NCBI GenBank assembly: GCA_002239105.1
Contig: MPNQ01000010.1
Span: forward strand, 14,638-78,637
Length of the DNA: 64,000 bases
Origin: a marine group bacterium Sva0996 bin134
Lineage (GTDB): Bacteria; Actinomycetota; Acidimicrobiia; Acidimicrobiales; Bin134
Direction of reading: 5' to 3'
Part shown: positions 14,594-63,982 of the stretch, piece after piece
Numbering within the stretch: the stretch's first letter is position 1
How the letters are laid out: each line of letters begins with the position of its first letter
Made by a program: the position numbers and the translations under genes
Notes under the pieces: model-generated
What the model was told of the DNA's origin: nothing
The model's input: only the letters and a program-made list of their open reading frames with translations
Databases searched by the model: none

Positions 14594-14771
14594 CCCCTCA
14601 GGGTATCCATCGCAGGAATGCTCGGAGAAACCGCCGTTAAACCAGTCAATCCATTGACCACAGCAGCCACATCAGTCACACTGAACTCGTCAAGGGGTGC
14701 TTGGAATAATGTTGCAATTTGGTTACGTTTGTATCCATCGCCTCCGCCACCGCGGGTGCCGATAGCTCCTC

Positions 14772-20193: not shown

Positions 20194-20203
20194 CCGCGAG
20201 AAA

Positions 20204-44917: not shown

Positions 44918-45222
44918 GGCCCAGGGATCGCCGCGATAACAGCTTGGAGATGAGTATGGTCGCTCGGGCTGTGAAAGGCCTGATCACGTTGTATCAGCGG
45001 GCCACCGACCATCGTCCCAGCCCCTGCCGGTACGTGCCGAGCTGTTCCTATTACGCGGTTGAAGCAGTAGAAGTCCATGGTGCGACCAGGGGTGTATGGC
45101 TGGGCCTGCGTCGCCTGTTGAGGTGTCGTCCCGGGGCTCCGACGGGCTGGGATCCGGTGCCCGATGCCAGTGGCCGCCTCGCACCCGACCCCACTGCAAG
45201 CAGGGCGGTGACCAGTGTTTGA
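44914..45222 (+). CDS. yidD: membrane protein insertion efficiency factor YidD
   Basis: ATG at 44914 overlaps the rnpA stop (ATGA). [34 protein letters not shown] is the YidD signature. Confidence 0.8.
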
Positions 45223-46438: not shown

Positions 46439-46440
46439 CC

Positions 46441-47367: not shown

Positions 47368-47370
47368 TCT

Positions 47371-47970: not shown

Positions 47971-47986
47971 TGTTTCACATGAAACA
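47971..47986. promoter_or_regulatory. parS centromere-like site
   Basis: TGTTTCACATGAAACA matches the TGTTTCACGTGAAACA consensus at 15/16. It begins directly after the rsmG stop, 49 nt upstream of parA. Confidence 0.75.
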
Positions 47987-48034
47987 TAGGGGGTATCCTT
48001 GATCCTTGGTTGAGGGTAAGGGAGAATTGACCAG

Positions 48035-49694: not shown

Positions 49695-49708
49695 TCAAGC
49701 AGGCTTGG
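49685..49708. terminator. possible bidirectional hairpin at the convergent parB / cwlM-like gene ends
   Basis: CCAGGCCTG-ATCAAG-CAGGCTTGG forms a 9-bp stem with one mismatch, spanning both stop codons. No U-tract. Confidence 0.25.
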
Positions 49709-50675
49709 TTGCCCATAGGGCAAGGCAGCCTTCTATGGCCCGGGCTAAGGGGGAGAGGCGGGCATGCACTAGGCCGGGGGGGCCCATGAGGCATTGGACG
49801 GCGGTCATTCGGGTGTGTCGCAGCACCGGCAACCGCATTCCCTTTACATCGGCGCTATCGGTGCCCAATGCCGCAGGAAGCCTTTGGCCTAGAATGCTGG
49901 CCAACCGCTGACCGCCGGGAGAGACGAATCCCTCGGTGGCGAAATAGGCCACTCGACACGCAGGGTCGTCGGAGGGGAGCAATCCCAGGTATACGTCCAC
50001 TTCCAGACGGTTGGCTTCGTCGGCCCGGTCGGCCTCTGTCCAGTCGCAGGCCTCGCTAACTGCCGCACCGGAGCGCCGCAAGCCAGTGGCCAATTCTCCG
50101 GCTACTGCGGCCATCGTGCTCGTCGAAGCGATCATTATGTGTTGTTCGGTCAGTCTTCGCGGCGCTAGCTGGAGTTTTGCCCGCTCCCGAACGGCGGCCA
50201 CGGTGGCGGGGGTGACTCTGGCCGACATGCGCACTAGGGCGGCGGTGGTGGCCGGGCCACACACCGCATCGGCGACGAGGCCGCTGTTGAGCTGGAATTC
50301 TTCCATCGCGTCGGCGGTGTTAGGCCCGAAAATCCCATCCACCCTTCCGGCATCGAATCCCAGCGACCCCAGCCGGAGCTGCAATTCGGCGACGTCGTCA
50401 CCCCGCAGCATGGGGTGGCTCATGTAGAGGTGTCTATCGCCAAGCGACCAGCTGGCCTCCTGCAAGGCAGTCCAGGTATGAGGCCCGCAGATTCCGTCAA
50501 CGCTGAGGCCTCGGCTGGCTTGGAAATCAGCTACCGCCGACGCGGTGGAGGCATCAAAGGATCCGTTTGCCGATAGTGCCAGGGCAAAACCTGCCGACGC
50601 CAGCTTCTGTTGCAGGAGTACGACATCGTCGCTCTCGTCTCCCCGCTTCAGCGTGGGTAGATGGTCGTCGGCCAA
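49695..50675 (-). CDS. cwlM: CwlM-like protein: two PG_binding_1 repeats plus an apparently degenerate amidase_3 domain, no signal peptide
   Basis: Two copies of G..G.DV..LQ..L...GF......DG.FG..T..A...FQ. The C-terminal amidase_3-like fold has IASTS where DPGHGG is expected. Synteny parB / cwlM / trxA / trxB / sigM matches mycobacteria. Confidence 0.65.
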   Translation of the reverse strand: MADDHLPTLKRGDESDDVVLLQQKLASAGFALALSANGSFDASTASAVADFQASRGLSVDGICGPHTWTALQEASWSLGDRHLYMSHPMLRGDDVAELQLRLGSLGFDAGRVDGIFGPNTADAMEEFQLNSGLVADAVCGPATTAALVRMSARVTPATVAAVRERAKLQLAPRRLTEQHIMIASTSTMAAVAGELATGLRRSGAAVSEACDWTEADRADEANRLEVDVYLGLLPSDDPACRVAYFATEGFVSPGGQRLASILGQRLPAALGTDSADVKGMRLPVLRHTRMTAVQCLMGPPGLVHARLSPLARAIEGCLALWATKPA

Positions 50676-50737
50676 TTCTGGCGCTCCTCGTATTCGTGCT
50701 TGTCAGCCCCCCGCAGGCGATGAGCGAAAGTAGACCG

Positions 50738-51067
50738 TCAAAAGGCGACTTCGCCGATCTCCTGGAGCAGTTGTTGCTTGCCTTTGGCCCCCACGATCCG
50801 CTTGGCCGGTTCACCATCTTTGAACACGATCAGCGTGGGAATGCTCATCACCTGGTAGCGCAGGGCAACGTCTTGGGCATCGTCCACGTTGAGCTTGGCC
50901 ACGCTGAGCACGCCGGCTTTCTCGACGGCGATCTCATCGAGGATTGGGGCGATCATCTTGCACGGGCCGCACCACTCAGCCCAAAAGTCGACAACGACCG
51001 GTAGCTCCGCGCTGCCAATCACTTCATCAAAGGTCTCATTGGTGAGCGTGGTGATGCTCTCAGCCAT
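50738..51067 (-). CDS. trxA: thioredoxin
   Basis: VVVDFWAEWCGPCKMIAP active site. 109 aa. Confidence 0.95.
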   Translation of the reverse strand: MAESITTLTNETFDEVIGSAELPVVVDFWAEWCGPCKMIAPILDEIAVEKAGVLSVAKLNVDDAQDVALRYQVMSIPTLIVFKDGEPAKRIVGAKGKQQLLQEIGEVAF

Positions 51068-51128
51068 CTTTGGGATCCCTTCGTTTGCGGGGGTCGGGGA
51101 GCGATCAGCCTATCAGCGGATCTTCGAT

Positions 51129-52115
51129 TTAGCCGTGTCCGGCGGACTCCAGCCAACGCTCGGCATCTATGGCGGCCATGCAACCTGAGCCGGCGGCGGT
51201 CACCGCCTGGCGGTAGATGTCGTCTTGCACGTCGCCGCAGGCGAAAACGCCCTCGACATCGGTGTGGCTGGAGTCGGGCTTGGTAACCAGGTACCCGTTT
51301 TCCTTGCGCTTCAGCTGACCTTCGAACAGGTCGGTGTTGGGCCGGTGGCCGATGGCAATGAACAGCCCGGTCACGTCTAGAGCAGAAGTCTCGCCGGTGA
51401 CCACATTCTGGACATCGACGCCGGCGAGCTTGTCGTCACCGCGGATGTCGGTTACCACATTGTTCCACAAGAACTCGATGCGGTCGTTGGCGAATGCCCG
51501 ATCCTGCATGATCTTGGAGGCCCGCAACTCGTCTCTGCGATGGACTACCGTGACCTTGGAGGCGAAACGGGTCAAGAAGGTGGCTTCTTCCATAGCCGAG
51601 TCGCCGCCACCCACCACGGCGATGTGCTGGTCCCGGAAGAAGAAACCGTCGCAGGTCGCGCAGGTGGACAGGCCGTGTCCGATCAGCCGCTCCTCGGCCT
51701 CCAGGCCCAGCATGATCGACTGGGCTCCGGTCGACACGATTACCGCCCATGCCCGGTAGGTGGGCTCGGGGGCGTCGGGGTCGCCCACCCACACGCCGTG
51801 GGGTGGACCGGTTAGGTCGACCCGGCTGACCTTCTCGGTGAGCATCTCCGCGCCGAACCGCTGGGCTTGCTCTCGGAATTTGATCATCAGCTCCGGGCCC
51901 ATCACCCCGTCGGGGAAGCCGGGGTAGTTCTCCACGTCGGTGGTGAGCATCAGCTGTCCGCCGGGCTGGTCGCTGGTGGACGACGGCTCGCCCTCGATGA
52001 CCAGGGGAGAGAGGTTGGCCCGGGCGGTGTAGACCGCCGCGGTAAGCCCGGCTGGCCCTGAGCCGATGATGATTACCTCGCGGATGCCTTGATCAGTTGT
52101 GGGAGCGTCGGTCAT
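51129..52115 (-). CDS. trxB: thioredoxin-disulfide reductase
   Basis: IIIGSGPAGLTAA FAD motif, CATCDG redox centre, and VVGGGDSAMEEA NADPH motif. Confidence 0.95.
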   Translation of the reverse strand: MTDAPTTDQGIREVIIIGSGPAGLTAAVYTARANLSPLVIEGEPSSTSDQPGGQLMLTTDVENYPGFPDGVMGPELMIKFREQAQRFGAEMLTEKVSRVDLTGPPHGVWVGDPDAPEPTYRAWAVIVSTGAQSIMLGLEAEERLIGHGLSTCATCDGFFFRDQHIAVVGGGDSAMEEATFLTRFASKVTVVHRRDELRASKIMQDRAFANDRIEFLWNNVVTDIRGDDKLAGVDVQNVVTGETSALDVTGLFIAIGHRPNTDLFEGQLKRKENGYLVTKPDSSHTDVEGVFACGDVQDDIYRQAVTAAGSGCMAAIDAERWLESAGHG

Positions 52116-52441
52116 GAGGGCCGCCTCGACCAGGCGAAGGCGCCTAGCGAAACGAAGAACAACCCGAGGATGCCGTGAGCTGCCCAGGCCCGTCCGGTGG
52201 CCACCTCTAGGCCGCGCACCGCGGCGATTATGCCCAGCACCAGCACGATTATCAGGGGAAACACCCCGAAAACGACGTAGGCCAGCATGCGGCTAGCCCC
52301 GACCACTGGCCCGGAGGTCACATCGCGGACCTTGTCTACAGAATTGACGACGGCATCAGCAGCCTGTTCGGGCCAGTCTTCAGACAGGCCCAGCATCGAA
52401 GCGGTCGTCGCCTCTTCTTTTGGCTCAGCGGCATCAGCCAT
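52112..52441 (-). CDS. small membrane protein (hypothetical), translationally coupled to trxB
   Basis: 109 aa with two predicted TM helices. Its stop overlaps the trxB ATG (ATGA). Confidence 0.4.
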   Translation of the reverse strand: MADAAEPKEEATTASMLGLSEDWPEQAADAVVNSVDKVRDVTSGPVVGASRMLAYVVFGVFPLIIVLVLGIIAAVRGLEVATGRAWAAHGILGLFFVSLGAFAWSRRPS

Positions 52442-52501
52442 AGGTGTTCAGACTACCGCCGAGCTGTGTCATATCCGATGTTGGGGGATAGGGGGGAGAG
52501 G

Positions 52502-53536
52502 CTAGGGCCAGTCGAGAAATGTGTGGGAATTGAACAGCTCACAGTCGGGCGGCGGGGATGTCTGGGTGAATCGCAGTTCGCCTTCGCCGAGGTACACCGA
52601 CACCTGGGATCCGGTTCCTTCCACCACTGCATCGAATCGGGTCAGCAGTTCGAGCTTCTCGTCGGCGGTCAGAGGACAGTCCAAGAGGTCGAGTCGGGCG
52701 GCAGCATCGGCTTGGTCTGTGCCTTGAGCAGCGGTGAGATCCTCCGCCACCTGTACAACGTGGACGATGAGATCAGCCTCGCTGGCGAACACCAAGGCGG
52801 CCTCTTCAGAAAGGGGCACGATTTCTGCTGGCTCGTCGGCCATTGCCGGCTCTGGTTCTTCTGAGTCATCGCTGGGGGCTTCATCGGCGGGTTCGTCTTC
52901 AAGCGATTCGGGACTGGCGGCCACAGCGGCAGACTCTTCTGCGGGCCCCATCAGATCGATGGGTTCCGGCAGCGCCTCTGTAGCGGCGTCGGCGTCATCC
53001 GACATTGGAGCAGCCGATTCCATTGCCATATCTTCGGCAGGCTCCTCGCTCTCGGCTGGCTCTGCGCTCTCGGGTTGGGGCTCGGGAGCAAGTGGTGCCT
53101 CGGGGACGGCATCTGCCGGTGCGTCGGCCATCGCCGGGGCCGACGCCGAATCGTCTGCGAACTGATCGTCGTCGCCGGTCTGCTCGAACAGGGTCACGCC
53201 CACCATGGTGATGGCTGCCACCACTGCGGCTGCGGCCAAAATGACCCGTGCTCGTGGAGGTACCGACCGCAGTCGGCGGCGGGCTGTCTCCAGCGACACC
53301 ACCGGGGCTCGGTGGTCCAGTGCCTGGGCGATCATCTGATCCCGCACCTCGTCGGAGGGCGGTTCCACCGGGGAGGCCACCAGATCTCTGACGGCCCGGA
53401 GCTCTTCCACCAGTTCCAGCAAGCGGGGATCGCCTTCCACCAGGGCGGCCTCTTCTGGCGTGGCTTCCCCGTCCAGATAGGCGGAGGCCAGCTCGTCTAG
53501 TTCCTCTGGGGTCATCTCGCGGCGCTCGTCGCTCAT
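52502..53536 (-). CDS. putative anti-sigma factor (single-pass membrane protein with acidic extracytoplasmic region)
   Basis: 4-nt overlap with the sigma gene. N-terminal LASAYLDGEATPEEAALVE... anti-sigma-like helix, TM segment VILAAAAVVAAITMVGVTLF, and a D/E/A/P-rich outer part. Confidence 0.6.
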   Translation of the reverse strand: MSDERREMTPEELDELASAYLDGEATPEEAALVEGDPRLLELVEELRAVRDLVASPVEPPSDEVRDQMIAQALDHRAPVVSLETARRRLRSVPPRARVILAAAAVVAAITMVGVTLFEQTGDDDQFADDSASAPAMADAPADAVPEAPLAPEPQPESAEPAESEEPAEDMAMESAAPMSDDADAATEALPEPIDLMGPAEESAAVAASPESLEDEPADEAPSDDSEEPEPAMADEPAEIVPLSEEAALVFASEADLIVHVVQVAEDLTAAQGTDQADAAARLDLLDCPLTADEKLELLTRFDAVVEGTGSQVSVYLGEGELRFTQTSPPPDCELFNSHTFLDWP

Positions 53537-54186
53537 GGTTGCTCCCCAGTGTGACGTTGGCCGGAGTCATCTGGGTTCCCGCTCATCAATTCGGCCAAAC
53601 GCCGGCGTCCCCGGGAGATGCGAGACCGGACTGTCCCGGGAGCGATGTCCAACTCTTCGGCGATCTCCTCATAGCTCAATCCCATCTGGTCGCACAGCAC
53701 CACCGGCACCCGGAATGCCTCGGGGAGCTGGGCCAGGGATGCCTCGATGTCCAGCCGATCGCTCACCGAGTCGGCCACCGGCCGCTCGACGGCCGCTAGG
53801 GGCTGCTCCTCCACTGGCGCCGGCACTGGCCGCCGGCCCCGGCGTCGCAGCTCGTCGAGGCAGGCGTTGGTCACCACCCGGTGCATCCAAGTGGTGAACT
53901 TTGAGCGCCCGTCGAAGCGATCGATGCGCCGCACCAGGGTGATGAGGGCCTCCTGGGTGGCATCTGAGGCGTCGGCCTCGTTGCCGGCCAGCCGCCGGCA
54001 GATGGCGTAGATCTGGTTGTAGTGCCGCCGCAGCAGGTCATCGAACGCGGCCTGGTCGCCCTTTTGGGCTCTCTTGACAAGGTCGGTGTCGTCGGCTGCG
54101 CCCCTGATTCCCTGAGGGTACTCACCCTCAGGGTGTATATGGTTGAACCAGGTGTAACTAGGCCGGGAACTAATCCACTCCGGCAT
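53533..54186 (-). CDS. ECF (sigma-70 group IV) RNA polymerase sigma factor, SigM-like by synteny
   Basis: Region 2 reads DLVKRAQKGDQAAFDDLLRRHYNQIY...DATQEALITLVR. Region 4 reads LSYEEIAEELDIAPGTVRSRISRGR. Confidence 0.85.
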   Translation of the reverse strand: MPEWISSRPSYTWFNHIHPEGEYPQGIRGAADDTDLVKRAQKGDQAAFDDLLRRHYNQIYAICRRLAGNEADASDATQEALITLVRRIDRFDGRSKFTTWMHRVVTNACLDELRRRGRRPVPAPVEEQPLAAVERPVADSVSDRLDIEASLAQLPEAFRVPVVLCDQMGLSYEEIAEELDIAPGTVRSRISRGRRRLAELMSGNPDDSGQRHTGEQP

Positions 54187-54197
54187 TCGTCATAGGT

Positions 54198-55619
54198 ATG
54201 ACCGATCGACGGGGGAGGACACCCATGCACCACGCGAACCCCACTGCAACCAAGTCCAAGCGCCGCCCCCTGGGCTTCATGCTGCTGGCGCTGCTCAGCG
54301 CGTTCTTTGTGCTGTTCAGCGCATGCAGCCCCGGCAACGACGACGATGCCGCGGTCAGCATGGATGCGCCCGCTGATGATATGGCCGCACCCGAATCGGC
54401 AATGGCCACCGATGACAGCGGAGGTCCCGTTTCTGAGCAAGCTGCGGACGAAGAGTCCGCGTTGGCCCGGCCCGAACCTGTTGAGCTGAGTGAAGACAGC
54501 GGCCTCGCCGTCCCCACTGCCCTCACGCCTGCCGATCTGGGCCGCGACATCATCTACCGGGCCACCATCGAGGTGCAGGCCGACGATGTGGCCGCGGCCA
54601 ACCGCGAGGCGGTGGCCATCGTGCAGGGCTTGGGCGGGATCGTGTTCTCCCAGTCCACCCGCACCGAGCCCCGCCCTCGCACCGAGATCACCTTCAAGGT
54701 GCTGCCCGGCGATTTCTCCACCGCGCTCGAACGCCTGGCCGGGGTGGGCAAGCTGATCGATCAGGTCATCAGCTCCGACGACGTGACCGAGATCATCGTC
54801 GATCTGGAAAGCCGCATCATCACCGCCGAGGCCAGCGTGACCCGTCTCCGTAAGTTCTTAGAGGAGGCCACCCAGCTCGAAGACGTCGCCCAACTCGAGC
54901 GCGAGCTGCTCGACCGGGAGACCACTCTGGAACGGCTGCGGGGCCAGCTCCGCACCCTGAGCGACCAGGTGGATCTGGCCACCATCACCCTCACCATCAC
55001 CCAGTCGCCCACCGTGTTGCCCGACACCGGGATCCGGGTCACGGCCTGGGTGTCCGAGGACGCCCAAGACCCGTGCCTGGGCGTGCAGAACATCACCGTG
55101 GAGCCCGACGCAAGCGTCTACCTCTGCTTAGAGGTGGAGAACACCGGCACCTCAGCGCTCACCGACGTGGACGTGAGCACCCGCAACCTGCGCCTCAACC
55201 TCGACAACTTCCGACCTGTCCAGGGCAACTTCAACCGCATCGAGGCCAACGAGTTGATGGCCGCGGTGCTGGAGCTCCCCATCGAAGAGGGCCGCCTGGC
55301 CGGCCGGGTGGCCACCCGGGGACTGCCCATCGAGCTCGAAGTGCTGGCCACGCCGGTGGATTTCGACGGCACTGCGCTCGATGAGGTGTGGGGCGAGTCG
55401 GTGGTGTGGGTGCAAGTCGACACCGACGACGCCCTGCCCGGCTTCGGCGACTCAGTGTCCGACGGCGCCAGCGGCGTGGTGGCCGTGTTCAGCGTGGTAC
55501 TGATCGTGGTCGGTGTACTGCTGCCCTTCCTGCCCATAATCGCCGCCCTCGCCGCCCTCATCTGGTGGATCCGCAGCCGCCGCAACCGCAAAGCAGAATC
55601 GCCGCCCCCGGCTAGCTAA
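54198..55619 (+). CDS. DUF4349 domain-containing lipoprotein with C-terminal TM anchor
   Basis: Lipobox-like LFSAC. DIIYRATIEVQADDV...ITFKVLPGDFSTALERLAGVGKL...coiled coil...DLATITLTI is the DUF4349 pattern. A hydrophobic helix lies near the C-terminus. Confidence 0.75.
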   Translation: MTDRRGRTPMHHANPTATKSKRRPLGFMLLALLSAFFVLFSACSPGNDDDAAVSMDAPADDMAAPESAMATDDSGGPVSEQAADEESALARPEPVELSEDSGLAVPTALTPADLGRDIIYRATIEVQADDVAAANREAVAIVQGLGGIVFSQSTRTEPRPRTEITFKVLPGDFSTALERLAGVGKLIDQVISSDDVTEIIVDLESRIITAEASVTRLRKFLEEATQLEDVAQLERELLDRETTLERLRGQLRTLSDQVDLATITLTITQSPTVLPDTGIRVTAWVSEDAQDPCLGVQNITVEPDASVYLCLEVENTGTSALTDVDVSTRNLRLNLDNFRPVQGNFNRIEANELMAAVLELPIEEGRLAGRVATRGLPIELEVLATPVDFDGTALDEVWGESVVWVQVDTDDALPGFGDSVSDGASGVVAVFSVVLIVVGVLLPFLPIIAALAALIWWIRSRRNRKAESPPPAS

Positions 55620-58569
55620 ACACAGCTCGGGAGGACATCAACCGATCGTATAGTTCCATGAGATCGGGGCTGACCAAGTCGTCGGCCTCTGGCTGCTTAC
55701 TCTCTCTGCGGAGCAATTCCACCAATTCGACCATGACGTGGCGTATCTCGGTGGGACTTTCCGCCGAGGCGGTCAACCGCCAGCGATAGCACTGCTCGCA
55801 TATCCCCACCACCCGGAGGCTGGTTAGGGCAGCCATGCGGGCGCCCTGAGTGTCACCCGCCTCTATGCACCTCTCAGCCAACTCGTGGGCCGTATTGTCC
55901 ACAAGGCAGTCGATTTGGGTGCGCAGGCCGAAATCGGCCCATCGGTACATGTCCCCAGTTCCTCCGGCGAATGGGGTTCCTCGCACAAGTTCAAGAGCAG
56001 TTTGAAGCATTTCTCGCCCGCGTTCGCTGGGATCCAAGCGAGCAGCGGAAACGAGGTCCTTGAACCTGCCGACATCGGTCCCCACTTCCGGTCGCAGACG
56101 ATAAATACCCCTTGGGCCCACCCTGGGCAGGTAATGCTCGCCATCGTCGTTGAACCCCAGCGCCTTGCGGGCCCGGCTAACAGTGTTGGCCAGAGTTGAA
56201 CGGGAGGGAGGTTTGTCAGGTGGCCAGATGTTGGCCGTTATCTGATCTGCGTCAGCACCCTCAGGATGGAAGGCCAGGTAGGCCACCAAATCTAGGGCGC
56301 GACGCGATTCGAACTGACGCGCCGCCCCCAGCACATCCACGCTTCCCATAGCCCGAACTTCTAAATCGACGGGCAAGGGGTCAATGAGAGGAGGGCCACC
56401 ATTTGGCGGGATCGATGTCGCCACAGCCGGACTCACTCCTTGGATTTCCTTGGCACAAACCGCCAGTTCGGCGACTGCCGCGACAGCATCACCAGAAAGG
56501 CCAAAAGGCTCCAGTTGAAGGCCGATTGGCTCTAGCAACAAGCCGCGCTCATCGAAGTACCCCTTCCAATTCGCGCCCTTGAGTCCGTGAGCCACGATGC
56601 TGACCGACGAACCGCACACCTCCAGAAGGCGGGAAGCTTCTTCCTCTTGGAGGGCGTTGGACACCAGCACCACAGTGGGATGCCAGAAGTCACCGCTGCT
56701 TCCGAATCTGGTGATGGCTGGAGGGGGATGGCTTCCCAGCAGTGCTCGGTTCTGGCTCCTTTGATATTCGATCCGTTCGATTGCCGAAGTCACGTCGGAG
56801 ACGTAGTCAACTCGCTCAAACGCAGTCAGGGCCTGGCCAAAGCCAACGCACAGCACGGTGAGATCGTCGGCTAGGTGGCTGCTGGCCAGCTGGGTAGCCA
56901 TTGCGGCGCACATGTCGCCAACTGCTTCGCTGTCACCCTCCAAGTTCAGGGCGTCTATGTATTCGAGGTTCAACAAGAATTCGTGGCCGCTTCTCTTTCC
57001 AACGGTGACTAAAGCGGGAAGTGGTGCTGGCACACCGTCTGCCTCCGCCAGGAGATGCTCCAGCTCAACGTCCCTCGACAGCCTCCATGTCATGCCGTCT
57101 TCGCCGACAACGAACCCGGAAGGTGCCTCAGCGGGCGTGCCCAGAAGAACTGACACGCTGTGTGAATCCAGGCTCACTCCAATGATCTCGAGTGGGGGAG
57201 TGCCTAAGACCCGAGAAGACAGCACTCTCAATGATGCGTCCAAGAACAGAGCGCTGTCAGGGTCGAATGCAGCCTCCAACTGCTGTTGCACATGAACCGC
57301 TTCAGCGCTGGGCGAAGCAGGTATGCGAAGGTTTGGCAGACTGCGGCGATGAGTCCGCCGAAGCCGAGCCAACACCCAACCGAGGCTGCTGGCGAATACT
57401 CCTAGACCGCCGATCGCGATGACGGTCTGCCTGCCGGAATCAGGCTGCCCTTCGGTTTCTGCCGGGATAACGCTGGTCACGACGGTCGGTCTGGCGGCGG
57501 AGTAGGCCATCACCGGGGCGGGACGGCCAGTCGATACTGGCAGCGGCTTGGAAGGTGGATCAGTAGACGGCGGCATTTGGATCTCCGGTTCATGGGCTGG
57601 GAGTTGAAGCTGCCATCCAGGCATGATCACGCTGGGATCTTGAATGATGTCCCGGTTGGAATTGAAGATGTCGATCCACCTTTCCGGGTCATGGAGATGA
57701 TGGGTTGCTAGCCCCCACAATGTGTCTCCGCTTTGCACGGTGATCGTGGAGTCATCGGGTTCGGGGAGAGGAACCAGGGTTGGCGGGCTATTCACCGGGG
57801 CTTTCTTGTCATCGAACACAGCTAATTCCTGGTGTGTATCAGCGGGCATGACCAATTCCCATCCCGGCTGAAGTCGCGCAGGATCGGTCAAAGTGCCCCC
57901 AACAGCCTGAGGTTGGTCTTGATTGAGCACAAACACCTCATTCCATCTGCTGGGGTCACCCAAATACCGTTCGGCGAGCATTCGCAGGCTGTCGCGTCGC
58001 CCTACCGTATGAATTAGCGGCTCTGCGTCAGTGGGTTCTTCCCCAAGCGTGGCGTTGGCTTCGCTCCTATTTGCATCTGGGGCAAGTCGGCCTTCCGCGT
58101 CTTCAAATGCAACTTCCCATGACTGTCCAACTTCCGTCTCAGTGCTTGCTGGTGCCAGGAGATCCTGATTGTCGGCCATCGCAACCCCAGGATGTTGAAT
58201 CGAAAATGCGATCACCAGGGCGGTGCCGATTATTCGGGCTGACAAGCGCTGTACGAACAGAGGGACGAAAGCAACTCGGGGGGCTACTCGACCATGAAGA
58301 TGGGCCCACAGTTCTATGGCTACGCCGGCAAGCATCTGCAACCAGAGAACCCAAACCACGAGGGAGATCGACTTCAGGATCAGGGATGGGGGAATGGCCC
58401 CTGTCTTGAGGGCATTTGCTACCTCCGACCCCGATGGAATCTCTTGGGGAAGTGGCCATCCCACCCCAACTATGAGGAGTATTGGGAGGCCGACCAGCAA
58501 CCCGGCGAGCAAAGCGGCAGAAGCCAAGCCGCGGATGAGTTCCGTGCGGTTTTCTTCGTTCAGATTCAT
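55612..58569 (-). CDS. polytopic membrane protein with two LysM-like repeats and a C-terminal winged-helix + BTAD (SARP-like) module
   Basis: Three N-terminal TM helices. LysM-like HTVGRRDSLRMLAERYLGD...GWELVMP and ITVQSGDTLWGLATHHL...GWQLQLP, then TM4 (TVIAIGGLGVFASSLGWVL). About 330 aa are unassigned. The C-terminus has an OmpR-type wHTH (EVRAMGSVDVLGA...IYRLRPE) plus BTAD helices. Confidence 0.75.
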   Translation of the reverse strand: MNLNEENRTELIRGLASAALLAGLLVGLPILLIVGVGWPLPQEIPSGSEVANALKTGAIPPSLILKSISLVVWVLWLQMLAGVAIELWAHLHGRVAPRVAFVPLFVQRLSARIIGTALVIAFSIQHPGVAMADNQDLLAPASTETEVGQSWEVAFEDAEGRLAPDANRSEANATLGEEPTDAEPLIHTVGRRDSLRMLAERYLGDPSRWNEVFVLNQDQPQAVGGTLTDPARLQPGWELVMPADTHQELAVFDDKKAPVNSPPTLVPLPEPDDSTITVQSGDTLWGLATHHLHDPERWIDIFNSNRDIIQDPSVIMPGWQLQLPAHEPEIQMPPSTDPPSKPLPVSTGRPAPVMAYSAARPTVVTSVIPAETEGQPDSGRQTVIAIGGLGVFASSLGWVLARLRRTHRRSLPNLRIPASPSAEAVHVQQQLEAAFDPDSALFLDASLRVLSSRVLGTPPLEIIGVSLDSHSVSVLLGTPAEAPSGFVVGEDGMTWRLSRDVELEHLLAEADGVPAPLPALVTVGKRSGHEFLLNLEYIDALNLEGDSEAVGDMCAAMATQLASSHLADDLTVLCVGFGQALTAFERVDYVSDVTSAIERIEYQRSQNRALLGSHPPPAITRFGSSGDFWHPTVVLVSNALQEEEASRLLEVCGSSVSIVAHGLKGANWKGYFDERGLLLEPIGLQLEPFGLSGDAVAAVAELAVCAKEIQGVSPAVATSIPPNGGPPLIDPLPVDLEVRAMGSVDVLGAARQFESRRALDLVAYLAFHPEGADADQITANIWPPDKPPSRSTLANTVSRARKALGFNDDGEHYLPRVGPRGIYRLRPEVGTDVGRFKDLVSAARLDPSERGREMLQTALELVRGTPFAGGTGDMYRWADFGLRTQIDCLVDNTAHELAERCIEAGDTQGARMAALTSLRVVGICEQCYRWRLTASAESPTEIRHVMVELVELLRRESKQPEADDLVSPDLMELYDRLMSSRAVFS

Positions 58570-59027
58570 AAGTCATCTCCTTTGCTGATGCCCTGAACTG
58601 CTCGGGCGGTGGCGGTACCAGCCACCCGGCGCGAGTCAATGCCGAGCATTGACAGGATTTGGAGGGGTTGAATCAACCACACGGTCGTTGAAACCGTGTC
58701 TCCCTTCACCGATATCGACCACTCTTGGTGTTGCCCAAGAAATTCGGAGGCCGCCATTCGAGCCAGTGATGGATCAACGACCACGTTCCCTGTTTCCCGA
58801 TACATGGCTTCGGTTGACACTGCTTGGGCTCCAGCTCTGGCTGCTTCGAAAGCCAGGGTGGAGGCTTCCCGTCGGGCAATCAATATCTGTGCTCCGTCAT
58901 ACGTCAGCCCTGCGAGCATGACCAGCACCGCAGCCAAGATGACAAACACCACGGTGACCTGTCCCCGCTGTTGGCATCTCAAGGAGTGGGGATTGCCCAA
59001 ACTTCTACTTGGAGCGAATCGAGGCAT
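58566..59027 (-). CDS. TadG/TadE-like pseudopilin
   Basis: QRGQVTVVFVILAAVLVMLAGLTYDGAQILIARREAS... is the N-terminal TadG-like hydrophobic helix. 4-nt overlap with the downstream gene. Confidence 0.6.
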   Translation of the reverse strand: MPRFAPSRSLGNPHSLRCQQRGQVTVVFVILAAVLVMLAGLTYDGAQILIARREASTLAFEAARAGAQAVSTEAMYRETGNVVVDPSLARMAASEFLGQHQEWSISVKGDTVSTTVWLIQPLQILSMLGIDSRRVAGTATARAVQGISKGDDL

Positions 59028-59029
59028 GA

Positions 59030-59479
59030 TTACGTGCTTCCGCTGCGGTAGCGGTCAACCATTGACGAGGAGTCCGCCGACACGGTCAGGCTGCCGGGAA
59101 TGTCTAGCAAGGTCAGATCTGACAACCGAACGACACATGACACCTGGACATGCACCTTCCCTCCCGGTTGAAGGTCCATCTGTCGTATGCGAACTTGTGG
59201 CCCGCCTTGGCAGCCAACATTCAACTGGCCCAAGGAAGCTTCAGCAGTCGTGGTGGCTGCCGCTTGGGCCGCCGCAACCGACTGGTATTGGGAGGCGGCT
59301 CGGGCGGAGCTGCCGGCAGCGATCGTCAACTTGCTCTCGGTCACCCCTACTCGACCGGCGGCTACGACAAGGAACAAGACCGTGGCCATGACGGGGGTGA
59401 GGACTGCCAGCCCAATCACGCTGCTGCCCCGCTCGAATGCATCATCGAACCGCTGGCGCCCCGGAGGGTTACCCTTCAT
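59030..59479 (-). CDS. TadE-like pseudopilin
   Basis: ERGSSVIGLAVLTPVMATVLFLVVAAGRV... is the TadE N-terminal motif. Confidence 0.6.
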   Translation of the reverse strand: MKGNPPGRQRFDDAFERGSSVIGLAVLTPVMATVLFLVVAAGRVGVTESKLTIAAGSSARAASQYQSVAAAQAAATTTAEASLGQLNVGCQGGPQVRIRQMDLQPGGKVHVQVSCVVRLSDLTLLDIPGSLTVSADSSSMVDRYRSGST

Positions 59480-59883
59480 TTTCGAATCCCGGGAATGAAG
59501 ACCTCGCGGGGACCTACCGCGGTTGACAAAATGGTCGGGGCATACCCCGGGATCAAGGACTTCACCGAGGCCTGCACTGTCACCGATAGTTGCGATCGGT
59601 TCGTTCGAACGGTGACGTTCACGTCCGACAGGAGGTTGCCCGCGCTTGTGCCGATGACCGACCGGGCTGCTGTTCGGGCAGCTTCTTCAGTGCCTCGTTC
59701 GCCTTGGCCGGCCCGGGCTCCGTCGTGGGCAGAAGCGTCGACTATGGCCTGCGCGTGAAAGACCAAGGCTGCTTGGACAACGACGAGGATCATGAACATG
59801 GCAAGGGGAACGGCCAAGACCGCAGTGGTCGTTTCGCCGCGCTCGCTGTCCATTCTCTGGTCGATCCCACCGCTGTAGGTCAA
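59476..59883 (-). CDS. TadE-like pseudopilin
   Basis: ERGETTTAVLAVPLAMFMILVVVQAALVFHAQ... is the TadE N-terminal motif. Confidence 0.65.
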   Translation of the reverse strand: MTYSGGIDQRMDSERGETTTAVLAVPLAMFMILVVVQAALVFHAQAIVDASAHDGARAGQGERGTEEAARTAARSVIGTSAGNLLSDVNVTVRTNRSQLSVTVQASVKSLIPGYAPTILSTAVGPREVFIPGIRK

Positions 59884-60080
59884 CTGATCTTGCTGGTTTG
59901 GCCGGAGATAAAGGTTGTGATGACCACGCCAGCAGCAACCGCGGCGGCTACCAGGACCGCGATGATGATCACAGTCGAGGTCACGTCACCCCGCTCGTCT
60001 TGCCATGCCCTTCGCACTCGTTCCTCTAACCCATTCCGCGATGCGGCCAGCAAGAGGTGGAATTTGACTACCGCTTTCAC
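59880..60080 (-). CDS. Flp-type (DUF4244-like) pilin candidate
   Basis: GTG start with AGGAG ending 6 nt upstream. ...QDERG|DVTSTVIIIAVLVAAAVAAGVVITTF is a leader ending in Gly plus a hydrophobic helix. It occupies the Flp slot between tadC and the tadE-like genes. Confidence 0.5.
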   Translation of the reverse strand: MKAVVKFHLLLAASRNGLEERVRRAWQDERGDVTSTVIIIAVLVAAAVAAGVVITTFISGQTSKIS

Positions 60081-60168
60081 TTGAGTCTCCTGCGATTATT
60101 CGGTGGGGGCGGTTCTAAGCGCCGATATGCGGATGCCTCTGCCTTGCGAACAAGTTTCTTTGAACCGA

Positions 60169-61047
60169 TCATGCGCTGACGATGGCGGCAATCGCCGGAT
60201 AGCCGATCAGCCCCAGAAAGCCCGTGAACATGAGTACGACGGGGAGCGACATGCGCTCGGTGGCCTGCTGAGCCTCCGTCTCTGCTTCGTTAAGTGCTCG
60301 CTCTCGCAAGCCTCGGGCTTTGGTGTGCAGGGACGATCGAACGTGGGATCCGGAGGTGCCGGCAAGCAATAGCCAAGCGGCAAGCTCCTCCATTTCTGTG
60401 GAGCCAAGATCGTGGCCCAGCTTTTCCAAAGCGGTCCATGATGGTTCGTTGGCCAATTGGGCTTGTCTCAAAGTCCGCTGGATTTCGACAAAGCCCCAGG
60501 CCAGACCACACCCTGCCGAGTCAGCAAGTGCCCGCTCCATTCCTGAGCCCCCGGACAAATGGAGGCCCACCAGATCTAGGTAGGTGCTGATTTGGTGGCG
60601 CAGCTCTCGGCGCCGACGCCGGGCCTTTTCGCGCAACGACAGATCTGGGACCAAAAAGAAGAGTCCTCCAGCCAAGATTGACGCCACCACCACCAGAATC
60701 GGAGAAACCCACGCTCCACCAAACCAGGCGACAATCCATACGCCCACAGGGAGTCCTGCTCCCAGGAGCAGCATCGCCAGCTTGGCCACGGCTAGCTCTT
60801 CCAGGCTTTGGCCGGCAGCTCTCAGGTCTTGCTCGACCCGGCGACCTCGCAATCCCAAGGGCCCGAACGACTGTGCCGCGGCCCGTCCAATTCTCTCACG
60901 GGGAGTTCCTGATCGGTGGCCGTCCTCCAATGGCTGATCTAGTTCGCTCAGTCGGATCTGCAATGACTCTCGGGGTGGAAACAATCCCCAGAAGATCGTG
61001 GCTAGACCAAGGCCGAGTAGGGATCCCAGTACCAGACCGACCGTCAT
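60169..61047 (-). CDS. tadC: Tad secretion system inner-membrane platform protein (T2SS-F family), TadC-like
   Basis: 292 aa. N-terminal TM, central cytoplasmic helical T2SSF domain, C-terminal TM pair. Overlaps tadB by 4 nt. Confidence 0.75.
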   Translation of the reverse strand: MTVGLVLGSLLGLGLATIFWGLFPPRESLQIRLSELDQPLEDGHRSGTPRERIGRAAAQSFGPLGLRGRRVEQDLRAAGQSLEELAVAKLAMLLLGAGLPVGVWIVAWFGGAWVSPILVVVASILAGGLFFLVPDLSLREKARRRRRELRHQISTYLDLVGLHLSGGSGMERALADSAGCGLAWGFVEIQRTLRQAQLANEPSWTALEKLGHDLGSTEMEELAAWLLLAGTSGSHVRSSLHTKARGLRERALNEAETEAQQATERMSLPVVLMFTGFLGLIGYPAIAAIVSA

Positions 61048-61931
61048 TGTTGGTGCCCACCGACTGTGCTTGGAGTCGCGGGAGCCCGGCCAACGTCAAG
61101 AATTCGCGCCGGACTGCTGAACCTGCTCATCTTCACGAGAGCAAATCCCGACCCGATGAACAACCCACCGATGATGGCAAGGGTTACCTGACCGGTCACG
61201 GAGTCGAAGGGGGCCAAGTACGGCCTGCTGAAGCCCACCATGGCAACGGAGAACACGGCCACCACGCCGGCAATGAAGCGGGCAGAGGTGAACTGCCGAG
61301 CTCGAGAGGCCTCGATCCGCAATCGCATTGACACTTCTTGACGTGTGCTGTCGGCAAGGTCGGCCAGCGACTCCTGCAAGGATCCCACCTGGTTGGCTGC
61401 TGCCAGTCCCAGTGTTACCGCAACGGTGTCGGCTACCGCGTGGTCGACTTCGTTGGCGAACTTGGCCAGAGCCCCAGGAAGCGGCTCTCGCTCAGCCCGA
61501 GCCGCGAGGGACCGCACGTGAGCGCGCACGGGCATGGGTGCGGTAACCGCCGTGGCGTTCAGAGCCTCGGTCAGCCCTGATGCCGCGCTGATGGTGTCGC
61601 GTACCATTTCCACCCAGGTGGCCAGGGCGTTCATGCGGGCGATTTCCCAATCACGGCTGGCCTTGGCTCCCAAGACCGTGGGCGAGATGAATCCAGCGGT
61701 GCCGGCAATGAGTCCGGCAACCGGCCATCCGGTCAGCACCATTGCGGCCACGAACCCGGTGCCCGCCACAGCAAATCGAATTACGAGTGAGGCAACAGAA
61801 CCCCTCGCCCATTTCGACCAAGTCAGACTGCGCTTGCCTGAGGACGACGGAGTTCCGCGCCATCCCACAAGGGCCGTGAAGACCCCGCTACCCACCGCAG
61901 CCCCCAGCAGCGCTCCAATCAAAGAGGACAA
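61044..61931 (-). CDS. tadB: Tad secretion system inner-membrane platform protein (T2SS-F family), TadB-like
   Basis: 295 aa, same architecture as the tadC-like gene. Overlaps tadA by 13 nt. Confidence 0.75.
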   Translation of the reverse strand: MSSLIGALLGAAVGSGVFTALVGWRGTPSSSGKRSLTWSKWARGSVASLVIRFAVAGTGFVAAMVLTGWPVAGLIAGTAGFISPTVLGAKASRDWEIARMNALATWVEMVRDTISAASGLTEALNATAVTAPMPVRAHVRSLAARAEREPLPGALAKFANEVDHAVADTVAVTLGLAAANQVGSLQESLADLADSTRQEVSMRLRIEASRARQFTSARFIAGVVAVFSVAMVGFSRPYLAPFDSVTGQVTLAIIGGLFIGSGFALVKMSRFSSPARILDVGRAPATPSTVGGHQQ

Positions 61932-63226
61932 TTCTGGTCCTCCCCCACAGCTTCGACCTCTGAGGCAGTGAGCTCGAAACCGACGTTGGCCAACCGATAG
62001 AGGGTGGAGGATTGAAGGGAACCGCTAGGACGAGCCTTGTTTGACTCGTGGTCCGAGAACACTTCCACGCTCTTCACGTCGCCCATCGAAGTGCCGGTAA
62101 CCTCTCGCACCGAGCCAACCCGGCGGCGGCCGTCTCGACCCCTGCTCATGTGGACCACGAAGTTGATGCTCTCCGCGACCATCCGATTGGTGGCCTCGAC
62201 GGGGATCTGCTCTGCGGAGCGCAATGCGTAGGTGGCGATCTTGCTGAATGCCGCCTGTGAAGAGTTGGCGTGAATGGTGCACATCGACCCGTCGTTTCCG
62301 GTCGACAGCGCAGCCAGCATGTCCACGACTTCGGGACCTCTCACCTCACCTACAACCAACCGGTCGGGCGACATGGCCAGGGCATTGCGCACTAACTGCT
62401 GCATGGTGATTGCGCCGGTTCCCTCGATATTGGCTGTCCGGGTTTCCAGTTCGATCACATCGCGATGTCGGTCGGAGTCAGCACTCAGAGCCAACTCCAG
62501 CCGATCTTCGATGGTGATCAGCCGTTCATTGGGATCGCAGGCGTTCAGAAGCGCGCGCAAGAGCGTTGTCTTGCCGGCATTGGTTCCGCCGCAAACGATG
62601 ATGCTCAGTCGAGCTTTCACCGCAGCCCGCAGAAAATCTCGGAGTCCGCTGTCGACGGTGCCCATATCGCACAAGTCGTCCAGGGTGATCCGCTCGTGGC
62701 GATGACGGCGAATTGATACCGCAGGACGTTCGGACACTGCCATCACCGCGTTTAGGCGAGACCCGTCGGGCAACTGCAAGTCCAAGAACGGGTTGGCCAT
62801 GTCGAACCGTCGTTCGGTTCGTCCCAGCCGTGCGGCTGCCCTGCGGATCAACGCGATGAGTTCATCGTCGGAGTCGGCGATGGCATCGGCTTGTCGTTTA
62901 GCCCCACCCGCGTAATGCACCCAAACCGTGTCACATCCATTTGCGTTTACGTTTTCTACCGATTCGTCGGCCAACAACCGGTCGATCGGACCGAGTCCGA
63001 ACAAAGTGGCCAACACCTCATCGGTAACCCGTGACTCCTCGGCGTTGTCGATGGGGGGAAGAAACGCCCGGGCGCGCTCCGCGGCGATGATGTCGAGTGC
63101 TTCGAGGATGAATTGCCCGGCCAGCGCCTTTTGTTCCAGTCGATTGTCAAACTGGCTTGTCTCGGCCCTATCGAGTTCTCGGGTGACCATGGCAAGAACC
63201 TGGTTGAAGTGGGGGCTGGCAGTCAT
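61919..63226 (-). CDS. tadA: Tad/Flp pilus assembly ATPase (CpaF/TadA, VirB11-like)
   Basis: Walker A CGGTNAGKTTLLRAL, RLITIEDRLEL, the Walker B region DRLVVGEVRG, and a His box (MCTIHANS). Confidence 0.9.
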   Translation of the reverse strand: MTASPHFNQVLAMVTRELDRAETSQFDNRLEQKALAGQFILEALDIIAAERARAFLPPIDNAEESRVTDEVLATLFGLGPIDRLLADESVENVNANGCDTVWVHYAGGAKRQADAIADSDDELIALIRRAAARLGRTERRFDMANPFLDLQLPDGSRLNAVMAVSERPAVSIRRHRHERITLDDLCDMGTVDSGLRDFLRAAVKARLSIIVCGGTNAGKTTLLRALLNACDPNERLITIEDRLELALSADSDRHRDVIELETRTANIEGTGAITMQQLVRNALAMSPDRLVVGEVRGPEVVDMLAALSTGNDGSMCTIHANSSQAAFSKIATYALRSAEQIPVEATNRMVAESINFVVHMSRGRDGRRRVGSVREVTGTSMGDVKSVEVFSDHESNKARPSGSLQSSTLYRLANVGFELTASEVEAVGEDQNCPL

Positions 63227-63235
63227 CGGCTCTCG

Positions 63236-63982
63236 CTAGGCGGTCGCACAACCGGTGGCCGCATCTTGCATGCGGTAGTTGATCCGATGAACGAGTTCGC
63301 CCAGGGTTCGCCACAGCAGCAGCCGACGGTGACGCTGGTGGGCGGGCAATCCCCCCACCATCACTTGGGCCGCTCTTGGCTCATGGGCCATGACACCCAA
63401 GAGATCGAGTCGAGAGGCCTTTGCCATCTCCGTCGGCGGGTATGGCCGGTCACCCACACATACCAGTGCCGTTGGGATGTCATGGGCGATCATCCTTCGG
63501 GCTTGATGGACTAGAGGGACAAGCTGATCGAACTGGGGCCGAGCGACGAGCACTAGCAGATTGCAATGCTTGATCAACTCGACAGCAGGGGAGTGAGGCC
63601 GTACCCGACCAACATCAACCACGGCGTCGATGCCGTCAAGGCGGCCCAGACCGTCCGCCAGACGTCTCGCCAGCGGGGCAAGCACCAAGGTGGTGGTTTC
63701 GCCGCAACCCGGAGAAACCAGGGCAGGCAACTGACCCGCCAGCAATTGGCAGTTGTTCTGCAACCTGTTGATGGTTAGTTCGTGTCGAGCTATCCCCGAC
63801 AGTTCCACCAACGACGGAGTCGAGGCCAGCCCGAAACGAGCCGCCAATACACCGCCGTCTCCGTCGGCTTCAACCAAAACAGCTCGGCGTCCGGTACTCG
63901 ACTCCCATGACAGTCCAAGTCCAACCGACAAGCTGGTGACGCCAGGACTGGCCTTCACGCTTCCTACCGCAATGATGCTCAT
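63236..63982 (-). CDS. CpaE/TadZ/Ssd-like ParA-fold protein with degenerate P-loop
   Basis: IIAVGSVKASPGVTSLSVGL occupies the deviant Walker A position but has V where the GK(S/T) lysine is expected. It is the first gene of the tad cluster, as in actinobacterial loci. Confidence 0.6.
   Translation of the reverse strand: MSIIAVGSVKASPGVTSLSVGLGLSWESSTGRRAVLVEADGDGGVLAARFGLASTPSLVELSGIARHELTINRLQNNCQLLAGQLPALVSPGCGETTTLVLAPLARRLADGLGRLDGIDAVVDVGRVRPHSPAVELIKHCNLLVLVARPQFDQLVPLVHQARRMIAHDIPTALVCVGDRPYPPTEMAKASRLDLLGVMAHEPRAAQVMVGGLPAHQRHRRLLLWRTLGELVHRINYRMQDAATGCATA

Follow-up and report, generated by a model that had tools for sequence, protein, structure and literature searches.

What does a protein with cell-wall-binding repeats on one side of the membrane and a DNA-binding module on the other do at the end of a pilus operon? 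The question is raised by a 64,000-nucleotide stretch of DNA from the marine group bacterium Sva0996 bin134 (Acidimicrobiales; NCBI GenBank assembly GCA_002239105.1, contig MPNQ01000010.1, positions 14,638 to 78,637 of the forward strand), hereafter the window, in which the last gene of a Tad (Flp) pilus operon encodes a 985-amino-acid (aa) LysM / FtsK-like / SARP membrane protein, called LFS here for short. Tad/Flp pili drive adhesion and colonisation and, to our knowledge, very little is known about their assembly or regulation in monoderm actinobacteria. We give a probability of about one half to the reading that LFS is a cell-wall-anchored, membrane-tethered activator of the SARP family whose gene is a constant accessory of one type of actinobacterial Tad operon, and LFS probably links the cell envelope or the pilus machine to gene expression.

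The LFS gene and its domain plan

The LFS open reading frame starts with ATG, has a stop-free translation and is under purifying selection, with a ratio of nonsynonymous to synonymous substitution rates (dN/dS) of about 0.2. In its start region, AAGGAGATGACTTATGAATCTG, the ATG (58569-58567) overlaps by 4 nt the TGA (58568-58566) of the upstream gene, whose 153-aa product matches Pfam Tad/TadG (TadE/G-like), and a ribosome-binding site, AAGGAG, lies 8 nt 5′ of the ATG. LFS is translationally coupled to this last pseudopilin gene, and the same 4-nt ATGA overlap is present in the called genes of L002, L050, L051 and L052 (loci of other genomes are numbered with an L throughout). The gene and its parts are listed in the order in which they are translated, with the evidence for each in brackets.

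55612..58569, minus strand: whole gene of the 985-aa protein LFS (open reading frame and translation, homologues, dN/dS)
58566..58569, minus strand: ATGA start/stop overlap with the TadG-like gene, giving translational coupling (read in the sequence)
58195..58557, minus strand: N-terminal three-helix membrane domain, aa 5-125 (hydropathy, charge bias, AlphaFold2 helices, invariant columns)
57835..58023, minus strand: predicted LysM repeat 1, aa 183-245, extracytoplasmic (identity to LysM repeat 2, NCBIfam, pLDDT 86-96)
57592..57756, minus strand: predicted LysM repeat 2, aa 272-326, extracytoplasmic (Pfam PF01476, profile match)
57340..57426, minus strand: fourth transmembrane helix, aa 382-410, then the positive patch RRTHRR (hydropathy and AlphaFold2)
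56449..57306, minus strand: predicted stalk helices and FtsK/EccC-like pseudo-ATPase domain, aa 422-707 (AlphaFold2, Foldseek, profile)
56914..56949, minus strand: degenerate Walker-A position, aa 541-552, LNLEGDSEAVGD (aligns to the 'ALVGEREQVLG' segment of the EccC5 DUF domain)
56080..56364, minus strand: predicted OmpR-type winged helix of the SARP module, aa 736-830 (AfsR profile alignment, Foldseek, Trans_reg_C in homologues)
56155..56205, minus strand: predicted recognition helix, aa 789-805, SRSTLANTVSRARKALG (conservation)
55624..56079, minus strand: predicted BTAD helical domain, aa 831-982 (PF03704 in homologues, structural matches to AfsR and EmbR)

The plan of the protein is therefore three transmembrane (TM) helices, two LysM repeats, a further TM helix, a stalk, an FtsK/EccC-type pseudo-ATPase, a winged helix-turn-helix (wHTH) and BTAD. 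Most of it had been anticipated in a reading of the window made from the sequence alone (the original prediction), which the present analysis bears out on these points. The claimed 4-nt overlap with the pseudopilin stop (58566-58569) is read directly as ATGA, and the claim that LFS is the terminal gene of the tad operon is confirmed by the Pfam-annotated tad genes upstream on the same strand and by the contig flanks. The three N-terminal TM helices and the fourth at about aa 382-402 reappear in hydropathy and in an AlphaFold2 (AF2) model, and the two LysM-like repeats proposed to lie outside the membrane are recovered by a direct Pfam match for the second, by the likeness of the first to it and by a topology, from hydropathy, charge and AF2, that places LysM outside and the SARP module in the cytoplasm. 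The middle region, described as faintly like a degenerate P-loop domain, now looks like an FtsK/EccC-type fold without Walker A in AF2, Foldseek and profile comparisons, and the SARP-like wHTH and BTAD are found through Pfam matches in homologues, a family profile and the predicted structure, not through single-sequence Pfam.

The predicted SARP module

The C-terminus of LFS is, judged from homologues and structure modelling, a complete SARP module, an OmpR-type winged helix followed by BTAD, on the cytoplasmic side. It was resolved only via homologues, the family profile and the predicted structure, since single-sequence searches fail: in Pfam and NCBIfam the wHTH and BTAD of LFS were sub-threshold or without a match, and phmmer with the C-terminal 250 aa found no match in the PDB. 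Trans_reg_C (PF00486) and BTAD (PF03704) were both found in 11 of 26 aligned homologues, and BTAD matches are precomputed for many of the distant ones. The family profile aligns to residues 34-281 of AfsR, its entire SARP domain, at E 3.3e-9, and the best PDB matches of the C-terminal module of the AF2 model were EmbR and AfsR (target-normalised Foldseek TM-score 0.62-0.70 over about 265 columns, with 0.70 and 24% identity for 8hvr_I).

The recognition helix is the most conserved stretch of LFS, with 88% identity in close and 42% in distant homologues, while the other folded domains reach 23-32% in the distant set and the linkers vary freely. AfsR contacts DNA through S46, Q48, W74, P79, S80, Q81, R87, T88, S91, R92, R94 and K95 in its cryo-EM structure (PMC10936776). 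In the profile alignment, seven of these twelve contacts are identical in LFS, W74, P79, S80, S91, R92, R94 and K95 corresponding to W782, P788, S789, S798, R799, R801 and K802, and the contact made by R92, the counterpart of R799, is base-specific (PMC10936776). The other five positions differ, including T88 (N in LFS) and R87 (A in LFS). Within the family R801 is kept in 76 of 77 members and W782 in 68 of 77. Given the conserved recognition helix and the retained contact residues, the SARP module of LFS very likely still binds DNA.

Membrane topology and LysM repeats

Hydrophobic peaks were found at aa 15-37, 62-88, 107-125 (weak) and 382-402, together with loops rich in K and R at aa 90-112 and 403-425 and an acidic stretch at aa 127-180. 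By the positive-inside rule and the number of TM helices, these fit a topology with the N-terminus inside, aa 127-381 including the LysM repeats outside, and the C-terminus inside. A full-length AF2 model built on a 77-sequence alignment (mean predicted local distance difference test score, pLDDT, 82.3) agrees with the hydropathy in placing helices at aa 5-36, 61-91, 104-125 and 390-410; in this model the linkers at aa 136-180, 249-271 and 329-383 are disordered, and the two LysM units, the middle domain and the C-terminal domains are confident. The membrane domain is near-invariant across the family at G37-x-P39-L40-P41, W73, W76 and E86, and W38 is invariant in the 26-sequence set only.

The second LysM repeat passes the Pfam gathering score from the single sequence (PF01476, 27 bits against a cut-off of 20.9). 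The first is 39% identical to it (E 9e-13) and is further supported by NCBIfam PRK11198, which reports two stretches in LFS. LysM was found in all 26 aligned homologues, and both units have an E-H-H-E secondary structure in the AF2 model with pLDDT above 86. Among PDB sequences, the LysM region is matched best by the LysM of TsaP (6ve2_O, E 5.7e-11; also 3jc8). Sequence and model support a position of both repeats outside the cell, where we infer that they bind peptidoglycan.

A middle domain resembling the EccC pseudo-ATPase

The middle region (aa 403-740) folds confidently in AF2 (pLDDT 85.9, predicted TM-score 0.83). Its top 38 Foldseek matches in the PDB are all FtsK motor, EccC, EssC or TcpA, each with a probability of 1.0, and the most compact of them is the 'DUF' domain of EccC5. 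A trimmed profile of the domain matched the EccC5 DUF (8rin_A) at E 1.7e-5, with EccC5 and Thermomonospora curvata EccC matches ranging from E 1.7e-5 to 6.9e-5. From these comparisons the domain is assigned to an FtsK/EccC-type P-loop fold, nearest to the EccC 'DUF' pseudo-ATPase. At the Walker-A position the profile alignment sets the family pattern '..alvGdseaarall..' opposite 'ALVGEREQVLGLM' of EccC5, without GK[ST], and LFS itself carries LEGDSEAVGD there. No conserved Walker A (GxxGxGK[ST]) was found among 120 homologues, in which the three matches were off position and are taken as chance. The middle domain is therefore classed as a pseudo-ATPase like the EccC DUF and not as an active FtsK/EccC ATPase.

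The tad operon and the LFS family

The rest of the tad operon within the window (58566..63982, minus strand) was assigned from Pfam matches and from the same gene order in related contigs. Its genes, all on the minus strand, are as follows, beginning next to LFS.

58566-59027, minus strand: TadG-like (Pfam Tad)
59030-59479, minus strand: TadE (Pfam TadE)
59476-59883, minus strand: TadE (Pfam TadE)
59880-60080, minus strand: Flp-like, 66 aa (weak class-III-signal-like match only)
60169-61047, minus strand: TadC (Pfam T2SSF)
61044-61931, minus strand: TadB (Pfam T2SSF)
61919-63226, minus strand: TadA (Pfam T2SSE ATPase)
63236-63982, minus strand: TadZ-like, 248 aa (position in the operon, no Pfam match)

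The locus thus holds the components that define a Tad (Flp) pilus operon, namely TadA, TadB/TadC, Flp and TadE/F/G, and contigs with an identical LFS protein place a SAF (RcpC/CpaB) gene, the first of the operon, just past the end of the window. LFS itself matches no Tad family in Pfam or NCBIfam and is an extra, lineage-specific accessory gene rather than a canonical Tad component (TadZ, A, B, C, D, E, F, G, V, RcpA, B, C, Flp). The TadZ-like protein had no Pfam match even at E 10, and its sole PDB match was a weak one to the P-loop BY-kinase BceF (E 0.086); in every distant locus its gene stands between SAF and TadA, and it is retained with LFS in the genomes without tad genes described below. 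The 66-aa pilin candidate has a GTG start and an unusually long charged leader of about 30 aa before its hydrophobic segment; no Flp match was found for it in Pfam, and its N-terminus has a weak archaeal-flagellin-like match (E 0.042).

Homologues of LFS comprise 64 full or near-full sequences at 52-98% identity and distant ones at 23-33%. The close homologues come from Acidimicrobiia, including the sponge-associated Candidatus Poriferisocius, and the distant ones from Phytoactinopolyspora, Kitasatospora, Micrococcus, Geodermatophilus, Rhodococcus and others, many with precomputed BTAD and LysM matches. When the middle domain alone was searched with phmmer against 1.84 billion cluster representatives (50% identity clusters), 1311 proteins were found at E<=1e-3 and 527 at E<=1e-10. 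The four-module order was complete in 99 of the 148 best representatives, 25 had the middle domain and SARP only, and the remainder were partial; several of the 25 look N-truncated because their start falls inside the basic patch that follows the fourth TM helix. Middle domain and SARP are both present in 132 of the 148, and those lacking SARP appear truncated. An artefactual gene fusion was rejected on the grounds that 99 of the 148 representative clusters have the same contiguous architecture. Judged from these sequences, LFS belongs to a large, widespread, architecturally uniform and uncharacterised family and is not a rare fusion.

The genomic context of the family was surveyed with a genome-wide scan of close homologues only, which restricts that sample to Acidimicrobiia, and with individual look-ups of 12 distant actinobacterial loci (L001, L002, L003, L005, L009, L044-L046, L049, L050, L051 and L052). 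A complete tad operon stands directly upstream of LFS in about 30 of 39 Acidimicrobiia genome loci, and in 12 of 12 distant loci LFS follows the order SAF, TadZ-like, TadA, TadB, TadC, Flp/small pilin, TadE, TadE and TadG-like, sometimes with one to four unknown genes before LFS and often with a prepilin peptidase after it. The association with tad genes that had been proposed from the window alone is thereby extended to both sets. None of the three outcomes that the original prediction named as refuting it (failed LysM or wHTH/BTAD searches, a DNA-binding module outside the cell, no such gene beside the tad loci of relatives) came about.

The distant loci span chromosomes, plasmids and an integrative element. 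One lies on a Streptomyces linear plasmid; that on a Brachybacterium plasmid (L009) adjoins a gene for a 'conjugal transfer protein' (3017-4012); and L052 has an integrase/excisionase at one end and a TraG/VirD4-type coupling protein and an M23 peptidase at the other (1-1014, 23098-23207). A tblastn search with the whole protein matched 215 plasmid records, only 13 of them covering at least 80% of LFS, with Streptomyces (145), Rhodococcus (20), Curtobacterium (8), Cutibacterium (6) and Micrococcus (6) as genera. This tad operon type seems often to ride on mobile DNA, and its pilus may serve conjugation. As a side observation, the Micrococcus contig L003 carries an FtsK-like gene and a resolvase (14651-15499, 19848-20420).

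Loci that lost the pilus genes

In three genomes TadA-TadG are gone altogether from this position, together with most of SAF; what remains is the conserved tad promoter and 5′ untranslated region (5′UTR), the TadZ-like gene and the LFS gene.

L027 (complete genome OZ220474.1), 8900-10010: deletion locus, LFS intact
L032 (complete genome NZ_OZ242338.1), 8950-10010: deletion locus, LFS intact
L043, 9000-13609: deletion locus, LFS broken into fragments

The dN/dS of LFS in L027 and L032 against relatives is 0.18-0.22, the same as between tad-complete genomes. The LFS protein tree pairs L027 with a tad-complete genome as sisters and puts L032 inside a clade that is tad-complete, and from these placements their tad losses are independent; the loss in L043 is possibly a third independent deletion. 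Retention of LFS without TadA-TadG argues weakly that its role is not purely structural and that it is a partner of the TadZ-like protein.

Comparison with known systems

The likeness of LFS to the SARPs AfsR, EmbR, ActII-ORF4 and DnrI lies in the complete SARP module. Known SARPs are soluble and encoded in antibiotic clusters, with the module at the N-terminus, to which the 'large' ones add a C-terminal NB-ARC/TPR (AfsR) or FHA (EmbR) part, whereas LFS is encoded in a pilus operon and carries its module at the C-terminus, behind four TM helices, two LysM repeats and an FtsK/EccC-like pseudo-ATPase. With ToxR, TcpP and CadC, LFS shares a membrane-tethered, cytoplasmic OmpR-type winged helix and a sensory or anchoring domain outside, and TcpP and ToxR feed into type IV pilus expression. 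In that group the wHTH is N-terminal, the TM helix is single, and BTAD, LysM and ATPase-like domains are lacking; LFS has the reverse domain order, four TM helices and extra domains, and does not qualify as ToxR-like. By analogy, the resemblance would be one of logic only, the proteins being related no further than the wHTH superfamily.

Like EccC and EssC of type VII secretion, LFS has a membrane helix, stalk helices and an FtsK-type P-loop fold without a canonical Walker A (their 'DUF', beside FtsK/TcpA); unlike them, it has this single domain, a DNA-binding module in place of the active ATPase domains that follow, and no type VII secretion genes nearby. TsaP and FimV, both of diderm type IVa systems, likewise combine LysM-mediated anchoring in the wall with a type IV filament machine that they act on or are encoded with, but TsaP is periplasmic and secretin-associated, and FimV has one TM helix, cytoplasmic TPR motifs and no DNA-binding domain. 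SCO4439 was considered for comparison as a membrane SARP and dropped, as its regulator domain is not identified as SARP in PMC4751497.

According to the original prediction, no characterised SARP with this topology is known. This stands as far as functional studies are concerned, but a gene annotated 'LysM, BTAD' at the same operon position had already been tabulated: PAGK_2369 in the 2013 annotation of the Cutibacterium acnes plasmid pIMPLE-HL096PA1, directly after three TadE genes (PMC3666418, Table 2). It is an annotation row only, mislabelled 'TadB' and without analysis of topology, middle domain or function, and its likeness to LFS is one of annotation (PMC3666418); six Cutibacterium plasmid records match LFS. 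PAGK_2369 goes unmentioned in a later paper on these Cutibacterium plasmids (PMC5696575). Public records label such proteins 'LysM peptidoglycan-binding domain-containing protein' or 'BTAD domain-containing putative transcriptional regulator'.

Possible functions of LFS

The reading as a tethered activator is favoured because the architecture and topology support a tethered SARP, because the AfsR contacts are kept and the recognition helix is the most conserved part, and because middle domain and SARP stay fused across the family. Its link to tad follows from the conserved operon position (12 of 12 distant and about 30 close loci) and the ATGA overlap, and a function beyond that of a mere pilus part from the two genomes that independently lost TadA-TadG yet kept an intact LFS. 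In the proposed mechanism, the LysM repeats would fix LFS in the wall beside the pilus machine, and the ATP-dead FtsK-like domain would be its oligomerisation or docking module and may receive the state of the machine, possibly via the TadZ-like or TadA ATPases. Depending on this state, the SARP module would bind at promoters and, in the manner of AfsR, bring in RNA polymerase to activate tad/flp genes and perhaps others. Such a device would follow the logic of the membrane one-component regulators ToxR, TcpP and CadC and be assembled from different parts. Its regulatory function, including the presumed binding to peptidoglycan and promoters and the putative targets and signal, is what sequence and models suggest.

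Several observations weigh against this reading. A regulator that is translationally coupled to structural genes and present in every such operon looks more like a stoichiometric machine subunit. The single-sequence Pfam search left Trans_reg_C below the gathering score (E 0.064) and did not find BTAD (PF03704), and literature searches found no functional study or analysis of this protein type. The fragmented LFS of L043 means that retention after pilus loss is not universal. The promoter searches point the same way. SARP target promoters have direct repeats spaced 11 or 22 bp, with the 3′ repeat separated from the -10 element by 8 bp and overlapping the -35, and SARPs activate transcription by contacting RNA polymerase / sigma region 4. 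A non-coding stretch 5′ of SAF, just beyond the right end of the window (L006 3775-3890), is very strongly conserved in about 30 loci and holds an AT-rich segment followed by TTGCTT-N17-TGGCAGATT, an extended -10-like promoter; this tad promoter already has a reasonable -35/-10, and no 11- or 22-nt direct repeats of the SARP type were found in it or in the flp spacer of the close clade. Upstream of the -35 lie AT-rich 'GAAATA' half-sites; they were rejected as SARP boxes because their spacing is 9 nt and they are degenerate in the lineage to which the window belongs. No motif was common to the distant loci, in which isolated 11/22-nt repeats occur singly (L005, L009, L001) without shared sequence or statistics. 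A 10-nt match, TATCTGAAAT, with the Phytoactinopolyspora locus is taken as chance because it is absent from every other distant locus.

The first of these objections leads to a doubtful but serious alternative, in which LFS belongs to the structure of the monoderm Tad machine, as an inner-membrane scaffold that is anchored in peptidoglycan and does work like that of TsaP or FimV in type IVa pili. LysM would anchor the machine, the FtsK-like ring and TPR-like BTAD helices would dock the cytoplasmic ATPases, and the winged helix would be a protein-interaction remnant or have a secondary role. Such a subunit would suit the pilus-secretin-associated TsaP as best PDB match of the LysM region (6ve2_O, 3jc8), the start/stop overlap conserved across orders, the presence of LFS in every examined operon of this type, the near-invariant G-x-P-L-P, W73, W76 and E86, which suggest specific intramembrane contacts, and the decay of LFS in tad-less L043. 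It sits poorly with the conservation pattern, since the DNA-recognition helix and not the BTAD or membrane domain is most conserved and AfsR DNA contacts are kept, and with the intact LFS, at unchanged dN/dS, of two genomes without TadA-TadG at this locus; moreover, the well-studied Tad systems of Aggregatibacter, Caulobacter and Bifidobacterium assemble pili without an LFS-like protein. In a further, unlikely reading, LFS would be an assembly or surface-contact checkpoint built into the Tad machine: the wall-anchored LysM/TM part and an EccC-like pseudo-ATPase ring would be placed in the basal body of the pilus, beside the TadZ-like and TadA ATPases, and the tethered SARP would be released or activated only in a defined state of the machine.

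LFS could also be a DNA-binding protein, anchored in wall and membrane, by which DNA is tethered at the Tad machine or presented to it, either for the conjugative transfer of plasmids and integrative elements with this operon or for a Tad-dependent uptake of DNA; it would then be an ATP-dead relative in design of Streptomyces TraB (membrane, peptidoglycan-binding, FtsK motor and wHTH parts); we regard this as quite unlikely. The operon type is frequent on mobile DNA, as seen in the plasmid records above, the 'conjugal transfer protein' next to the Brachybacterium plasmid locus and L052, which is flanked by an integrase/excisionase on one side and by a TraG/VirD4-type coupling protein on the other. 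The top structural matches of the middle domain include the FtsK motor and the TcpA coupling protein, TraB binds peptidoglycan (PMC4447253), Cutibacterium Tad plasmids carry TraB-, VirB4- and TcpC-like genes (PMC5696575), and Tad pili serve DNA uptake in Micrococcus, being required for transformation of M. luteus (PMC4322843). Yet with no Walker A anywhere in the family there would be no motor, the winged helix is of SARP/OmpR type with BTAD and not of FtsK gamma or TraB type, and the closest sequence match of the middle domain, EccC, is a protein secretion component and no DNA translocase. The copy in the window, moreover, sits in a core chromosomal region (tilS-hpt to sigM-trxB-trxA-cwlM-parBA) with no mobility genes. 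Least probable, and very much so, is a sensor of cell-wall stress or wall state with a non-pilus regulon, in which case LFS would be a mere passenger of the operon, with envelope genes in other places as its targets; LysM ectodomains are apt for sensing the wall, and LFS outlives TadA-TadG in L027 and L032, but there it still stands behind the tad promoter with the TadZ-like gene, and tad synteny is strict across classes and on small plasmids that have few other candidate targets.

Neighbouring genes and RNA elements

Contigs carrying the identical protein show the operon flanked by tilS-hpt on one side and by a block of ECF sigma/anti-sigma, trxB, trxA, cwlM, parB, parA, gidB, jag and yidC on the other; trxB, trxA, cwlM-like, parB, parA, gidB, jag and yidC were identified from these related contigs. 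The window part of this block (45215-54186) is an origin-proximal core gene set, as in mycobacteria, and includes the following.

53533-54186: ECF sigma gene (sigM-like)
52502-53536: zf-HC2 anti-sigma-like gene

The order sigM-antisigma-trxB-trxA-cwlM-parBA is known from mycobacteria. With such a conserved core-gene flank, the tad operon is inserted in a conserved chromosomal neighbourhood with no obvious island. A role of the downstream ECF sigma gene in regulating Tad was considered and is rejected, as the gene belongs to this core arrangement. A convergent DUF4349 gene (54198-55619, plus strand) overlaps the 3′ end of LFS by 8 nt; its open reading frame has 473 aa in the window and 464 aa as called on contigs, and it occupies the same position in most close loci and is absent from the more divergent L026, L028, L029, L034, L035 and L041.

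After the tad promoter, the 5′UTR contains a hairpin (GGAGC/GCUCC) followed by CCUCCCC, with compensatory changes in L026, L035 and L041; no Rfam family was found for it. In the tadC-flp spacer (60081-60168) an element, TATCGGCGCTTAGAACCGCCCC (60106-60127, minus strand), occurs once in the window and is conserved in 22 related loci, folding into a GGCG/CGCC stem of 4-5 bp, with a compensatory fifth pair in L024, L025 and L040 and all pairs kept as G.U in L010. It was considered as a SARP site or as an ECF promoter or protein operator and rejected as such, since the compensatory and G.U changes fit a small RNA hairpin; an RNA hairpin acting in processing or stability, directly before the pilin gene, is the more probable reading.

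Implications

LFS appears to be the fixed tenth gene of one widespread actinobacterial Tad operon type, carried on chromosomes of sponge-symbiont Acidimicrobiia, linear plasmids of Streptomyces, acne-associated plasmids of Cutibacterium and integrative elements. Its family would extend the SARPs, soluble activators of antibiotic clusters, to a membrane-embedded, wall-binding format, and would give the EccC-type pseudo-ATPase fold a context outside type VII secretion. Tractable hosts with genes of this type exist in Streptomyces, Micrococcus and the Cutibacterium plasmids. If LFS were the checkpoint described above, it would count as a new core component of Tad systems in monoderms and as the first SARP signalling device to cross the envelope, forming a direct mechanical link from pilus or wall to transcription in actinobacteria that, on plasmids and integrative elements, could extend to the DNA being transferred.

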